Shown here in pieces: positions 1 to 12,900 of a stretch of DNA of 64,000 nt. Source of the stretch: a virus (taxonomy: Duplodnaviria; Caudoviricetes); the IMG/VR virus record IMGVR_UViG_3300033066_001102, positions 10,614-74,613 of that record; one strand, given 5' to 3'. The first letter of the stretch is position 1, and every line of letters starts with the position of its first letter. A program made the translations under genes and the position numbers. The notes under the pieces are model-generated. The model did not search any database. It had not been told where the DNA came from and saw only the letters and a list, made by a program, of their open reading frames with translations.

Positions 1-3
1 GTA

Positions 4-549
4 GTGATAATTGACTACATGCAGCTGATGCACATGCGTAGTATGAACAAAAATGCCAACAGGGAGCAGGAAATAACGGCCATAAGCAGGATTATTAAGA
101 CCGTAGCGATGGAAACCGATACGGCAATGGTGCCCCTTTCACAGTTAAGCAGGACAGTGGAAACCAGGGGCGGGGATAAACGCCCACAACTATCTGATCT
201 ACGAGAATCTGGATCTATTGAACAGGACGCAGATAGCGTATGGTTTATTTACCGGCCGGAGTATTACAAAATCATGCAGGACGCTAATGGATATTCAACG
301 CAGAATGTTGGGATCATTGATGTTGCCAAAAACAGAAATGGAGAAACCAAGGATCATGAATTTTTATACACTCCAGCACTAATGAAGTTTGAAGAATGGC
401 CAAGTGAATTGAATAAGAAGTATGAACCTAATGCCGATGGCAGAAAGGGAAAGAAAAAAAGAGCCACTGACATTTCACGCAGAGATTACACGGAAGCTGA
501 AAGGGATGATGATTCGCCGCCAACAGAAGATGATCCACTACCTTTTTAG
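4..549 (+). CDS. dnaB: Replicative DNA helicase DnaB, C-terminal part (gene begins before the window)
   Basis: DnaB motifs LSQLSRTVETRG..KRPQLSDLRESGSIEQDADSV and IIDVAKNRNGET; acidic C-terminal tail. Confidence 0.95.
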   Translation: MIIDYMQLMHMRSMNKNANREQEITAISRIIKTVAMETDTAMVPLSQLSRTVETRGGDKRPQLSDLRESGSIEQDADSVWFIYRPEYYKIMQDANGYSTQNVGIIDVAKNRNGETKDHEFLYTPALMKFEEWPSELNKKYEPNADGRKGKKKRATDISRRDYTEAERDDDSPPTEDDPLPF

Positions 550-884: not shown

Positions 885-1096
885 CCGACCGCGAAAAGCT
901 CCAGGCATTTGCTCGTGAAGTGCAAACAATGCAAGCCATGCAAGACAGATATTTCAAGATTTCAAAGGAAGCAAGAAATAATTTAGCATCACCGGATCAG
1001 GTGCGAGAAGCACTTAATAAATCAAAGGCTCAGGAAGCCAGAGTAAGAAAACTGGTGACTAATGCGCTGAGTCTTCAACTTACAATCGGAGATTAG
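863..1096 (+). CDS. Hypothetical protein
   Basis: Overlaps the previous ORF and is coupled to the next; helical composition. Confidence 0.6.
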   Translation: MSDKKTLTDREKLQAFAREVQTMQAMQDRYFKISKEARNNLASPDQVREALNKSKAQEARVRKLVTNALSLQLTIGD

Positions 1097-1281
1097 TGGA
1101 ATATCTATACCACGGTGACCGCATCACAGATCCAAGGTTGAAGAAGAAAACCTGCAGCGCCATACGGTTAAACGGTAAGTGTATTCGGGGAACAATGGGA
1201 ACGATGCTGGTCCGATTTGAAGATGGCGAGAGAGCAGTAATCATTGCAAAACTTTTAAGAAAAATAAAATCATGTGGATAA
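1096..1281 (+). CDS. Small basic hypothetical protein (GTG start)
   Basis: Stop/start coupling on both sides. Confidence 0.5.
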   Translation: MEYLYHGDRITDPRLKKKTCSAIRLNGKCIRGTMGTMLVRFEDGERAVIIAKLLRKIKSCG

Positions 1282-2429
1282 TCCCTTCCAATCACCCGCT
1301 TTACTCTCAATTTGCACCGGATCTGGTGGACTCGAAAGAGGAATTGAGCATGCAACCGGCGCTGCAGTTCGAACAGTCGCTCATGTGGAAATCGAAGCCT
1401 TTATCATTGAAAACCTGGTGCGCCAAATGGAACAGGGTATATTGGATCCCGCACCTATTTGGACGGATGTTAAAACCTTCTTCCCATTTGCACACCACTT
1501 TCGTGGAAAAATTGACGGCATCGCTGCAGGATATCCTTGTCAACCCTTCTCAAAAGCCGGTGAACGAAAAGGAGAAGATGATCCAAGACACCTTTGGCCG
1601 TATATATTCAGAATCATTGAAGCAGTACGACCTGTTTGGTGTTTCTTCGAAAATGTCAGAGGACACCTCACAATGGGATATGACCAAGTTTACAAAGACC
1701 TTAGAAGTATTGGTTACTCAGTTGAGTGTGGAATATACTCAGCGCAAGAAGTTGGCGCAACACATGAGAGAGAACGGCTTTTCATCCTTGCCGTGGCCGA
1801 CTCCTACCGCATGGCAGAGCGGGGAAGAACCGGATACATTCGAAGCTCGCAGACTGCGCCTGAAAGAGAAATGGGGGAAAAAAACCGGGAACGGAGCAGG
1901 GGAAACATTGAACATATCAGTAAAGAAGTGGACAACACCAACGCTATCATCAGCGAAGCAGGGAGAGAACGAGCCCGATGGGAAACGATCGCAGACTTTG
2001 ATTGGTCAAGTGCGCGGCAGCAATTGGGCAACACCACTGTCCAGGGAAGTGAAGAAAGGATTCCAGACAAGGGCAGACAGAGAAAAAAACGGGCAGCAGA
2101 TCGGACTGATCACCCAAGTATTAGAAGCAGAGAACTGGGGAACACCAAGGAGCAACGAACACAAGGGATCGGGACCGAAAGGCAGCAAGGTACAGCAGAA
2201 GATGATGGATCAGCAATACCTGTCAGCCCAGGTGGAGGGTACAGATGGCCTGCTCCCAAAGGAGTCTTCCAACATCCGTGGGAAGCGCCCCGTCTTGTCT
2301 CCGGCATGGACTGCACAGTTAATGGGTACAACTTTAGAGAGGATCTTCTTCGCATGTTGGGAAATGCCGTTGTTTACCAGACAGCGGCCAAAGCATATCT
2401 TGACTTACTCTCGAAATTCAGATGAATGA
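1272..2429 (+). CDS. Alternative-frame polypeptide overlapping the C5 methyltransferase; probable beta subunit carrying motif IX and TRD-like repeats (true start uncertain)
   Basis: 385 codons without a stop; four WxTP...LxxxV repeats and a motif-IX-like LSPAWTAQLMG; resembles the M.EcoHK31I alpha/beta arrangement. Confidence 0.65.
   Translation: MWIIPSNHPLYSQFAPDLVDSKEELSMQPALQFEQSLMWKSKPLSLKTWCAKWNRVYWIPHLFGRMLKPSSHLHTTFVEKLTASLQDILVNPSQKPVNEKEKMIQDTFGRIYSESLKQYDLFGVSSKMSEDTSQWDMTKFTKTLEVLVTQLSVEYTQRKKLAQHMRENGFSSLPWPTPTAWQSGEEPDTFEARRLRLKEKWGKKTGNGAGETLNISVKKWTTPTLSSAKQGENEPDGKRSQTLIGQVRGSNWATPLSREVKKGFQTRADREKNGQQIGLITQVLEAENWGTPRSNEHKGSGPKGSKVQQKMMDQQYLSAQVEGTDGLLPKESSNIRGKRPVLSPAWTAQLMGTTLERIFFACWEMPLFTRQRPKHILTYSRNSDE
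1274..2425 (+). CDS. DNA (cytosine-5) methyltransferase, alpha-type polypeptide (motifs I-VIII and X)
   Basis: Motif I LSICTGSGG, IV GYPCQPFS, VI FFENVRG, VIII HERERLFILA, X LGNAVV; no canonical motif IX seen in this frame. Confidence 0.93.
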   Translation: MDNPFQSPALLSICTGSGGLERGIEHATGAAVRTVAHVEIEAFIIENLVRQMEQGILDPAPIWTDVKTFFPFAHHFRGKIDGIAAGYPCQPFSKAGERKGEDDPRHLWPYIFRIIEAVRPVWCFFENVRGHLTMGYDQVYKDLRSIGYSVECGIYSAQEVGATHERERLFILAVADSYRMAERGRTGYIRSSQTAPEREMGEKNRERSRGNIEHISKEVDNTNAIISEAGRERARWETIADFDWSSARQQLGNTTVQGSEERIPDKGRQRKKRAADRTDHPSIRSRELGNTKEQRTQGIGTERQQGTAEDDGSAIPVSPGGGYRWPAPKGVFQHPWEAPRLVSGMDCTVNGYNFREDLLRMLGNAVVYQTAAKAYLDLLSKFR

Positions 2430-2635
2430 ACTACGAATGGAAGCCATTTAACAAATGTCCTGATTGCGATGAAATGATTCAGGCAGGAATCAAGTTCATG
2501 ATAGACCATCAAGTTGAAAAGCATGGACTACAGGAACGTACCAATACATTGATCAATGCAAGAACTTTAAAGGGTAGCGAATTAACCATTGATGAAGCAC
2601 TGACAGTAATAGGGAAAAATGAGCACCGAAAATAA
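2426..2635 (+). CDS. Small protein with a possible C2H2 zinc finger
   Basis: CPDC...HQVEKH; start overlaps the upstream stops. Confidence 0.5.
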   Translation: MNYEWKPFNKCPDCDEMIQAGIKFMIDHQVEKHGLQERTNTLINARTLKGSELTIDEALTVIGKNEHRK

Positions 2636-9920: not shown

Positions 9921-12900
9921 TATGCAGGGGGATTAATGTTTACAATAATTGCGGACGCCGTAGTAACTCCTGTAAGCTTGATCTTCATAATGCTATGCTC
10001 CGGAACATCTATTAATGAACTGGAAGTTGACAGTTCGCTGATAGGCACGATATCAACCGGAGTAAGACCGGGCACCGGAAGCGGGAAGTATTTGAAGTAA
10101 TCGTATGCATGGCACGTTCCTATTGAACCGTAAAGCTCTTCGCTGTAACACCCTGTTACATCCACATCCGTTAACAAAGTGGTGCCATCCACGACAATAC
10201 TCTGGATGACTTCCGCATCATTGATATTGTACAGCCATAAGTAAACCACGGAATCAACCTCAAATGCTACAATATCAAACTGTAGTGGCTGGTTCGTGAT
10301 CGTCACCGGAATGAATACCGGGTAGCCGCCTGAATACGTGCTTAATGGTTTAAGCAGTTCGTATGCTACCCCTTGTATTCGCTTCACGAATGTATCCGCG
10401 CCAGATCCGTTTATGTATGACGGATCGATCGAGAACAATGCATCTTGCGCAGTAATTACCGAAACGGCACTTTCGTTCATTAAGAATACAGCGCTTGAGA
10501 TAAAATTATCGTGAGTATGATTGAACTTGAAAAACTCAATTATCTCATTTATGATCATAAGCCCATGTAGCATGGTGTTCGCTACATATCCGGTACGCTG
10601 CTGCGAGCATCCGTATTGCCCAACATGCATCCTTAACGGATAAGCCAGGTCATAATAAGTTTGCAGCCTGGGCAGGACTTCCCCGTATAAACTGTTATTG
10701 CCATCAAACAGATTATCCCTTGTATAATCCAGAGCAAGGGCAAAGTAAACATCAATATCCGTAGAGTTGTTTGCCCCGGGAGAGTTGCCGCCATTATCCC
10801 CTAACCAGAAGTATTGACTGAATTCCTCGATACCCTGAGAGATTGCACAAGCCACAACATCAGCATTGGTCCAACCGGAACGATCCTGAATAGCCAGGTT
10901 TATCACCCTTACTGCATTTGGGAAATTGGCTTTTACATAATTATCAAACGTAACAACCAGGGCTATGTACTCCGCAGAAGTCATCGAGGCGCCAGGTGTA
11001 ACAGCGTCAGAATTGCCGGTACTCATCTCGTTACCGTATCGCACCTTGTAAGGGATACCAAGCGATTCCAGTTCTGTAAGATATTGCCCTAACTCGGTTG
11101 TGGTACCGTGCGATAGGTTTGCCGTAAACACGATCATGCTCATGTTTGCAACCGAATTACAATACGTCTTAAACCGGGCCCAGAAGTCCTGCCCGGAATC
11201 GTTGTACGTTTCGTGCAGGTCTACGGCATCATCAACGCTTCCGGTATAATGATAGATCTCATTTGTATTTGCCCGCATCCCTACATTTGATACCGTTGTC
11301 AATGGCTCGTTGTTTGGCACAAGGTCAAACCCGCCACGCTTGCTTACATAGTGTATCCACCGATCCTGAGCACCGGATGAATAGACGCCATGCTTAAATC
11401 CAATTTCATTTACAAAGTCCGTGAAATCGGTTTTGCTGTATAAATCAGTATAATATAAGCCCACGTTATCCAATGCAACCCCAAACAACGGCAGCATGTT
11501 ATCAATTTCATCAGCAGTGTCCGGAGTGGTGAATACCACGGACAAGCTGTATGGGCGAAGCCTTAAGGTGTCCTGCTCAACATATGTAACGCCTTCGGTG
11601 ACAGGATCCGTCGCATTCGTGCTGTAGTTTTGTGTTACAGACAGATTACTTGCCGGCACCGATACGCCATCAATAATGAGTGAATCGACAGTAATATCCT
11701 CTGCAGTAGGATTCAGCAGCAGCACCCGGATCTCGCTGCCAACCTTTATCGCGAGCGTCACCAGGTTACTGTCAACAATAGAACTATTGCTTACCATGGG
11801 CAGCAGCTTTTGATTATCCGCAAAGAAGCTACCCAACTGAACCATGAAAGGGTAATGCACTTTTGTGCTGTAATCATCATTCACATCAAACAGCTGCTTG
11901 ATATTCATGAAACACGCTCCTACCAATTTGTCATCATGATCCAGATTGTCTTTGGTAAGAGTCATGTATATTTCGGCCATGAGCAAGCCATTTGCAGCCG
12001 TGTTACGGATCGGGGAAGTAGCCTTAACAGTAACCTGGGATAAGAACACCCCCTTACCGTTTAAGTCGCTATCCTCTACGAATGCCCAAAAATCAGTCCG
12101 ATCAGCAACCTTCTGGCGAACCGCAGGATAATCCACCGCGTCGCTATCTTTAAACTGATAATACTGCCGGTTTACATCAACAATATCCAGTTCCATTAAG
12201 ACCTGATTCCAGTCGGCATCATCATTGCCTCCGTCGTCCCACAACCTGCCATCCATAGAGATAATGACATTAGGAAGTGCCGCCCGGATATATTCAAGGA
12301 TAGTCGTTCCTGCATCTACTTCGGTCAACAGCCGATAAAGAATTTGCGCCTTCGTTGTTTCTGCCCCTCCGGTATTCACAAACAGATCCTCCCATGCGCC
12401 GGTCTTTAACTCCATACCCAACTCCAAGATATCAAGACTGGCATTTGTAGCATTAATTCCGGCAACGATTAGATCAACCTCGTCCTTTACGGCCTGATAG
12501 TCCACCGAAGCCCATACGATTGTATCATTGCTGAATGGAATTAGCGGAGAGGCCAGGTTCAATCCAACTACAGCCCTGGTTATTTCCAACTGGTCGATGA
12601 AGTACTGGAACTCGGTAAAGAACTTGCGGCCATAAGGATTGCCGCCATTATACAGGTCACCGCCTTGTACCGTTGTATAGTCAAGCCCCCGATCGGTAGC
12701 ATCCGATTCGATACTTCCCCATCCATCCGTTCCTGCAGGATGCCACCAGTCGATGACAGCGCCGGTCGGGAAAGCCAAGAAACTGAAATTAAGCTCCTTC
12801 ACCGCATTAATCAGATCGGTATTTCCTACAAGTGAATTTTCAATAGAAAGGTCAAACCATGTGGATCCCCAAATATTAAGCATATCAACAGGCGATTCCG

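Follow-up and report, generated by a model that had tools for sequence, protein, structure and literature searches.

Multispecific DNA (cytosine-5) methyltransferases of the kind carried by the Bacillus phages SPR, phi3T and rho11s are single chains with several short tandem modules between motifs VIII and IX; the combinations of modules vary by phage, and the target of each module has been assigned experimentally. In split enzymes of the M.AquI type, the alpha polypeptide carries motifs I–VIII and the beta polypeptide motifs IX and X. Enzymes of this type are named in PMC3404938. In M.EcoHK31I, alpha has motifs I–VIII along with X, and beta, the product of a different reading frame within the alpha gene, supplies motif IX; both polypeptides are needed for activity (PMC2836561). 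Totally overlapping methyltransferase open reading frames (ORFs) have also been reported in Streptococcus thermophilus phages of the 5093 group, with citation of MM1 and Tn5252 (McDonnell et al. 2017; PMC5601072), and our literature searches for phage methyltransferase genes that overlap or are overprinted returned nothing beyond M.EcoHK31I and these streptococcal nested ORFs. Here we analyze a locus at positions 1272–2429 of a 64,000-nucleotide stretch of viral DNA (Duplodnaviria; Caudoviricetes; positions 10,614 to 74,613 of IMG/VR record IMGVR_UViG_3300033066_001102), referred to below as the window. With a probability of about 0.8, this locus encodes a two-chain DNA (cytosine-5) methyltransferase from a single stretch of DNA that is read in two frames.

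Two ORFs on the same strand overlap completely at this locus, giving a doubly read stretch of 1.15 kb in which the third frame contains 23 stops. Both had been noted as open by a first-pass annotation of the window, made from the sequence and its ORF translations, and they encode 385 and 383 amino acids (aa):

1272–2429, plus strand: frame B, opened by ATG 1272 and closed by TGA 2427–2429, 385 aa, +1 relative to frame A; candidate second chain, overprinted in its N-terminal part and followed there by four W-x-T-P units and motif IX.
1274–2425, plus strand: frame A, opened by GTG 1274 and closed by TGA 2423–2425, 383 aa; predicted C5 cytosine methyltransferase catalytic chain with motifs I–VIII, a disordered linker and motif X.
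1272–1277, plus strand: shared start ATGTGG, in which ATG 1272 opens frame B and GTG 1274 opens frame A.

Frame A has a TAA at 1265–1267, which makes GTG 1274 its earliest possible start. The protein encoded by frame A matches Pfam family PF00145 (E = 4.8e-34) and phrog_363 (E = 3.4e-51), and its motifs I, IV, VI, VIII and X identify it as a C5 DNA methyltransferase that is predicted to transfer a methyl group to cytosine C5. The following parts were located:

1304–1342, plus strand: motif I (S-adenosylmethionine binding, x-G-x-G-G); C14, G16 and G23 are invariant in 66 relatives.
1529–1552, plus strand: motif IV, catalytic P-C-Q; C89 is invariant in 66 relatives.
1643–1663, plus strand: motif VI (E-N-V); E126 and N127 are invariant.
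1754–1792, plus strand: motif VIII (x-R-x-R); R168 is invariant.
1793–2245, plus strand: charged, low-complexity linker, the shadow of the frame B units, kept open; predicted local distance difference test score (pLDDT) 39–48.
2246–2293, plus strand: W-P...W-E-x-P-R segment before motif X; P326, A327, G330, W336, P339 and R340 are nearly invariant in frame A.
2348–2386, plus strand: motif X (G-N-A-V helix); G363, N364 and V366 are nearly invariant; pLDDT 87–97.

An AlphaFold2 model of A, calculated with a 66-sequence alignment, has a predicted template modeling score (pTM) of 0.65, with pLDDT values of 90–98 for residues 1–180, 39–48 for residues 190–320, and 87–97 for residues 355–380. The prediction for A is thus a large catalytic domain that a disordered linker joins to a motif X helix. 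This bears out the first-pass description of a frame with motifs I–VIII along with X, and with a low-complexity middle that lacks motif IX. Between motifs VIII and X, frame A has neither a target-recognition domain (TRD) nor motif IX; both appear to be supplied in frame B instead. Among relatives, the linker of A ranges from 45 to 279 codons and varies with the number of units in B.

The four W-x-T-P units and the motif IX-like segment that had been described in frame B were located as follows:

1272–1793, plus strand: N-terminal part of B (Bn, 174 aa), over the catalytic domain of A; begins M-W-I in 104 of 120 relatives.
1794–1928, plus strand: unit 1 (W-P-T-P), type 1; this type occurs in 31 proteins, one copy each.
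1929–2024, plus strand: unit 2 (W-T-T-P), type 11 by unit comparison.
2025–2135, plus strand: unit 3 (W-A-T-P), type 10 by unit comparison.
2136–2294, plus strand: unit 4 (W-G-T-P), type 2, the usual final unit; this type occurs in 25 proteins, one copy each.
2295–2327, plus strand: putative motif IX (L-x-P-x-W...L-M-G); L342, W346, L350, M351 and G352 are invariant in 38 relatives.

The W-x-T-P signature stands at residues 175, 220, 252 and 289 of frame B, every unit closes with L-x-x-Q/S-V, and the motif IX-like segment comprises residues 342–352. In a set of 5.8 billion proteins, B has 323 relatives, mostly 35–47% identical across about 95% of its length, none of which has a Pfam match. A frame B profile reached 25,435 clusters (50% identity) at E ≤ 1e-3 and 2,642 at E ≤ 1e-30, yet neither Pfam nor NCBIfam has a model of the family, and B-type proteins of five phages matched nothing when scanned against the two collections. 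No solved structure was found with a profile of 110 B proteins, even at an E value of 10, a Foldseek search with the predicted model of B gave nothing usable, and a search of the ESM Atlas returned only viral clusters labeled "hypothetical protein". One relative of B, P0029 (477 aa), has recorded NUMOD4 (PF07463) and HNH_3 (PF13392) domains, possibly through fusion with or insertion of a homing endonuclease.

Conservation of the two-frame layout was assessed in three sets of loci: viral loci found by alignment of B, viral loci found by alignment of A, and loci in bacterial genomes. Alignments were used as queries because a search with the single A protein returned one locus only. Stops in the second frame of homologues, which the first-pass annotation had named as one observation that would speak against a two-chain enzyme, were scarce in every set. 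In the B-selected set, built on 80 viral loci from the B alignment search and also including the window and loci of cultured phages, both frames are open across at least 95% of B in about 76 of the 82 loci analyzed (GC content 0.43–0.57). The search was repeated with an alignment of A so that the loci were not selected on B; in nearly all of these 80 loci, the +1 frame is open over 0.84–1.0 of A, and the corresponding value for the +2 frame is 0.1–0.3. The third frame of relatives contains 11–34 stops. Bacterial genomes show the same layout in 20 of 21 loci, nearly all of them in Bacteroidota (Chitinophaga, Dyadobacter, Aquimarina, Mucilaginibacter and others), which suggests that the host of the window phage belongs to the Bacteroidota.

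Among cultured phages, tblastn with B recovered C75C1 and Synechococcus phages, in which both frames are open throughout and B is again +1 to A, and the layout is shared by C75C1, Synechococcus phage Yong-M2-251, Acidovorax phage Alfacinha3, Burkholderia phage phi1026b, Paenibacillus larvae phages and Lactobacillus phage Lc-Nu. Altogether, about 160 related viral and bacterial loci have both frames open. In L025, L054 and L064, which at first seemed to deviate, motif X has shifted into the B frame. In L005 (about 1460–1671), a single in-frame stop lies inside Bn with an ATG directly after it; the stop could be a sequencing error, the copy could be decaying, or its B could be shorter. The layout is kept in hundreds of phages, yet it has barely been described.

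The dependence of these open frames on amino acid sequence and codon usage was examined by shuffling synonymous codons within each gene, which preserves both. Across relatives, 3.4 stops are expected per locus in frame B over the catalytic part of A (P of none about 0.02), and 5.4 stops are expected in frame A over the unit part of B, where none is seen (P of none about 0.007). For the window itself, frame B was stop-free over the catalytic part of A in 0.002 of the trials (0.2%), and frame A was stop-free over the unit part of B in 0.012 (1.2%). Single-chain enzymes related to gp71 of Mycobacterium phage Martik (about 24, GC content 0.60–0.71) served as a control; their +1 frame has 5–12 stops, similar to the +2 frame. 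Amino acid identity did not discriminate frame B (0.43) from the closed +2 frame (0.39); this comparison is uninformative because both frames inherit the constraints of A.

Selection on Bn was further examined at four-fold degenerate sites of A in 18 sequences with less than 62% identity in A, the cyanophage and C75C1 sequences among them. At conserved four-fold A codons, third bases are 85–100% fixed at window positions 1385, 1397, 1436, 1454, 1475, 1712, 1721, 1730, 1742 and 1754, where the fixed bases are, in order, G, C, T, T, C, T, T, A, G and C, and the B residues that they set are W, P, V, L, P, V, L, E/D, R and A. Four-fold sites 1307, 1535 and 1559 are saturated. Fixed bases that are specific to the site can be produced neither by codon bias nor by mere avoidance of stops, and Bn is thus under residue-specific purifying selection. 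The two frames are conserved and open, both evolve under purifying selection, and the second is not there by chance.

The start of the two frames is likewise recurrent among relatives. The hexamer ATGTGG, with ATG for B and GTG for A, occurs in 84 of 129 distinct start contexts, and in 46 start contexts the GTG is the earliest possible start of frame A. Variants of the site include ATGACATGG, ATGATGTGG and GTGTGG, the last in phi1026b and three bacterial loci. A Shine–Dalgarno (SD) core was found in 45 of 96 relatives, with spacers of mostly 4–5 nucleotides (nt), and in 56 of 96 the ATG of frame B adjoins or overlaps an upstream stop. Kohl et al. 2022 (PMC9841429) found that, in Escherichia coli, AUGUG and GUGUG sites with a 4-nt spacer yield the products of both frames, in vitro and in vivo. 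Those sites resemble the present ones in having AUG and GUG two bases apart after a single SD sequence, and in the window AUG and GUG stand two bases apart at 1272–1276, each opening a long ORF. They differ in that they were reporter constructs together with E. coli sites whose alternative ORFs are short; at the window locus both ORFs have about 385 codons, are conserved and apparently encode parts of one enzyme, whose synthesis would use both starts.

The W-x-T-P units vary in number and kind. We compared 377 units in 106 B proteins, which contain 1–7 units each, and distinguished at least 12 types. All 1,526 significant BLAST links between units join different proteins, and none joins two units of one protein; most types occur in one copy per protein, and their set and order vary between phages. 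Links between proteins only, together with types that mostly occur once per protein, point to shuffled modules rather than recent tandem duplications. The window combines types 1, 11, 10 and 2, in that order. Several distinct tandem modules that are combined differently among phages are also a feature of multispecific phage C5 enzymes, and the window units fit the role of several recognition units, each with a putative target of its own. The earlier suggestion that they are multiple recognition units is in keeping with this pattern.

Relatives with other divisions of the same parts place the two frames in relation to one another. In Martik gp71, a single frame contains motifs I–VIII, several L-P-T-P units, the motif IX segment and motif X, and PF00145 matches it from end to end. 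In a further group, which we call type 3 (L121, L153, L167, L104, L025 and L054), frame A ends soon past motif VIII, and the units, motif IX and motif X all lie on frame B. In both type-3 and single-chain relatives, motif IX precedes motif X in frame; the IX–X stretch of L153 aligns weakly with motifs IX–X of plant DRM enzymes (E = 0.018). By their sequences, the parts of A and B in the window are homologous to in-frame parts of single-chain enzymes. In Mycobacterium phage Maddy2, the frame switch falls in the middle of the unit array. There (L003 1688–3082, 1875–2504), as in L187–L189, L198 and L203, the +1 ORF consists of the N-terminal part and two units before it stops, and in such intermediates the main frame holds three further units, motif IX and motif X. 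In the P. larvae phages, B begins about 60 codons inside A and has been annotated as an internal gene or a second methyltransferase; the Paenibacillus phage papers list two methyltransferase genes and do not discuss the overlap. In Lc-Nu, frame B is unannotated. Lineages thus differ in the switch point and share the division of labor between one catalytic frame and one +1 recognition frame. In phi1026b (L168 601–2466) and vB_E253 (L170 1498–3618), frame B runs from GTGTGG through into a ParB-like partition gene; the resulting B-ParB fusion of about 700 aa, named "chromosome partitioning protein" in some records, overlaps the annotated methyltransferase frame.

In the two-chain enzyme that we propose, chain A would provide the catalytic large domain, a disordered linker at the usual place of the TRD, and the motif X helix. 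Chain B would provide the parts that A lacks, namely the array of W-x-T-P recognition units and motif IX, after the 174-residue Bn. At the single initiation site ATGTGG, placement of AUG in the P site would lead to B and placement of the GUG two bases on would lead to A. With one initiation site for both frames, B must be open from its first codon, and as motif X lies beyond the unit array in A, A must stay open through the array. We infer that A and B are both made and assemble, and that the choice of one or more target sequences would lie with B; methylation of the phage's own DNA by this enzyme would serve to protect it from host restriction. The proposal of a two-chain methyltransferase made in the first-pass annotation gains support from the open second frame of homologues.

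A more specific version, to which we give somewhat less than even odds, is that B acts as a separate, exchangeable specificity subunit, comparable in role to HsdS of Type I systems. The units would then be shuffled cassettes of at least a dozen types that allow one enzyme to cover several restriction targets; Bn would have arisen by overprinting and would now dock B on A, and the ATGTGG double start would fix the ratio of A to B.

Several observations weigh against the two-chain enzyme. For B, AlphaFold2 returned a weak model (pLDDT 66, pTM 0.31) that matches no solved structure, and the likeness of Bn among sequences is partly a shadow of the conserved motifs of A. The window has no SD sequence, which is often the case for Bacteroidota and for phages that infect them; the spacing rule known from E. 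coli may therefore not hold. The evidence on the window locus and its relatives consists of sequences and predicted models. In addition, the streptococcal phages MM1 and 5093 have +1 ORFs of 141–144 aa inside complete single-chain enzymes, which means that an open +1 frame over the catalytic domain need not indicate a split enzyme:

L208 7622–8056: conserved nested +1 ORF in Streptococcus pneumoniae phage MM1, inside a complete single-chain C5 methyltransferase gene.
L209 6218–6643: conserved nested +1 ORF in S. thermophilus phage 5093, inside a complete single-chain C5 methyltransferase gene.

These nested ORFs contain neither W-x-T-P units nor motif IX. The +1 frame over the catalytic domain has evidently been used more than once.

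The MM1 and 5093 ORFs, the confident fold predicted for A without B, and the continuation of frame B into a ParB-like gene in phi1026b-like phages would all be compatible with an A that works by itself as an orphan methyltransferase of little or no specificity, with B as an unrelated overprinted protein, for example one for DNA binding or anti-restriction. We consider this unlikely, as motif IX, which is part of the methyltransferase fold, is on B, the B units sit where single-chain relatives have their TRD, and motif X is on the B chain in type-3 relatives, leaving A incomplete there. Given what is established on C5 enzymes, moreover, binding and flipping of the target are not expected of a chain that has neither a TRD nor motif IX.

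Somewhat less likely still is recoding, in which translation would start in A, enter the units and motif IX by a +1 shift past motif VIII, and shift back before motif X, giving one single-chain enzyme with the long ORFs as by-products. The order of parts on the DNA (motifs I–VIII and X in A, with the units and motif IX between them in B) matches that of single-chain relatives, a single +1 shift would be enough in type-3 relatives, and runs of seven A at 1878–1884 and 2083–2089 lie within the doubly coded unit region, where loss of one A in the transcript would join frame A to frame B. However, two precise shifts would be required in the window, no obvious shift site was noticed at either junction (no systematic search was made), and the position of the frame switch varies among relatives. 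Recoding also leaves unexplained why B has an open frame, a conserved ATG and residue-specific selection across its first 174 codons, and why A is open through a linker of variable length; a simple double frameshift was rejected as the sole explanation. An artefact or decay, be it a frameshifted pseudogene, an assembly error or a chance open frame driven by composition, has a negligible probability. The middle region of the locus is rich in purines and poor in T, which lowers the frequency of stops, and the GC content of 1272–2429 is 0.49 as compared with 0.43 for the whole window, a difference that is also expected where stops are avoided in two frames. Against such an origin, hundreds of independent assemblies with GC contents of 0.43 to 0.65 share the layout, all catalytic motifs are intact, and shuffles rarely leave the frame open; a pseudogene, an assembly error and a chance ORF were each rejected by the open frames of relatives, the shuffles and the four-fold site fixation.

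The two-frame locus is flanked by two short ORFs:

1096–1281, plus strand: upstream 61-aa ORF; its TAA 1279–1281 lies just beyond the double start.
2426–2635, plus strand: downstream 69-aa ORF; its ATG lies between the stops of frame A (2423–2425) and frame B (2427–2429).

With the stop of the upstream ORF at 1279–1281, all three frames are used at 1272–1281. Farther upstream, window positions 1–549 encode the C-terminal part of a DnaB-like replicative helicase, and the methyltransferase adjoins helicase or other replication genes also in C75C1, Yong-M2-251 and Redbud.

The expectation that standard annotation drops the second gene agrees with public records, which usually call one frame only. 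Gene callers that allow one gene per stretch keep either the catalytic or the recognition frame of this family and lose the other, and the locus is named variously as methyltransferase, hypothetical protein or chromosome partitioning protein. If the two-chain enzyme is real, the annotated methyltransferase alone cannot predict the methylation specificity of phages with such genomes; the locus would also be a natural, strongly conserved test case of two proteins in one sequence of more than 1 kb and would give ambiguous AUGUG initiation a biological use. If B is in addition an exchangeable subunit, the locus, with its thousands of protein clusters, would rank near the top, in length and in spread, of the functional same-strand dual-coding regions known from DNA phages, and the detachable module array might be of use in building methyltransferases with chosen targets.

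In terms of known systems, the modules of the window resemble those of the SPR, phi3T and rho11s type, likened here by description, in being tandem and differently combined among phages, and they differ in residing on a separate chain. The streptococcal nested ORFs of Tn5252, MM1 and the 5093 group (PMC5601072), which their discoverers annotated as a second methyltransferase product, likewise place a second, +1 ORF over the catalytic codons of a phage C5 enzyme; unlike in the window, the main ORF of MM1 and 5093 is a complete single chain with the TRD and motifs IX and X in frame. With the M.AquI type, the window shares a two-chain C5 enzyme split in the variable region, and the same division of motifs is seen in the type-3 relatives. 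In the window, however, motif X stays on A, and in all forms of the family the second chain overlaps the catalytic domain of the first instead of following it.

The likeness to M.EcoHK31I, the precedent that the first-pass annotation had correctly cited, lies in the layout: the alpha-type chain A has motifs I–VIII and X without IX, and the second chain, in the other frame of the same gene, carries the motif IX-like segment. The beta polypeptide of M.EcoHK31I is a short, nested one, and it is alpha that holds the TRD (PMC2836561). In the window, B spans the whole gene (385 codons), starts 2 nt ahead of A, has a conserved 174-residue overprinted N-terminus and bears the units at the TRD position. 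In its layout, the window locus would be an extended and widespread form of the EcoHK31I principle, with a putative recognition array on the second chain.

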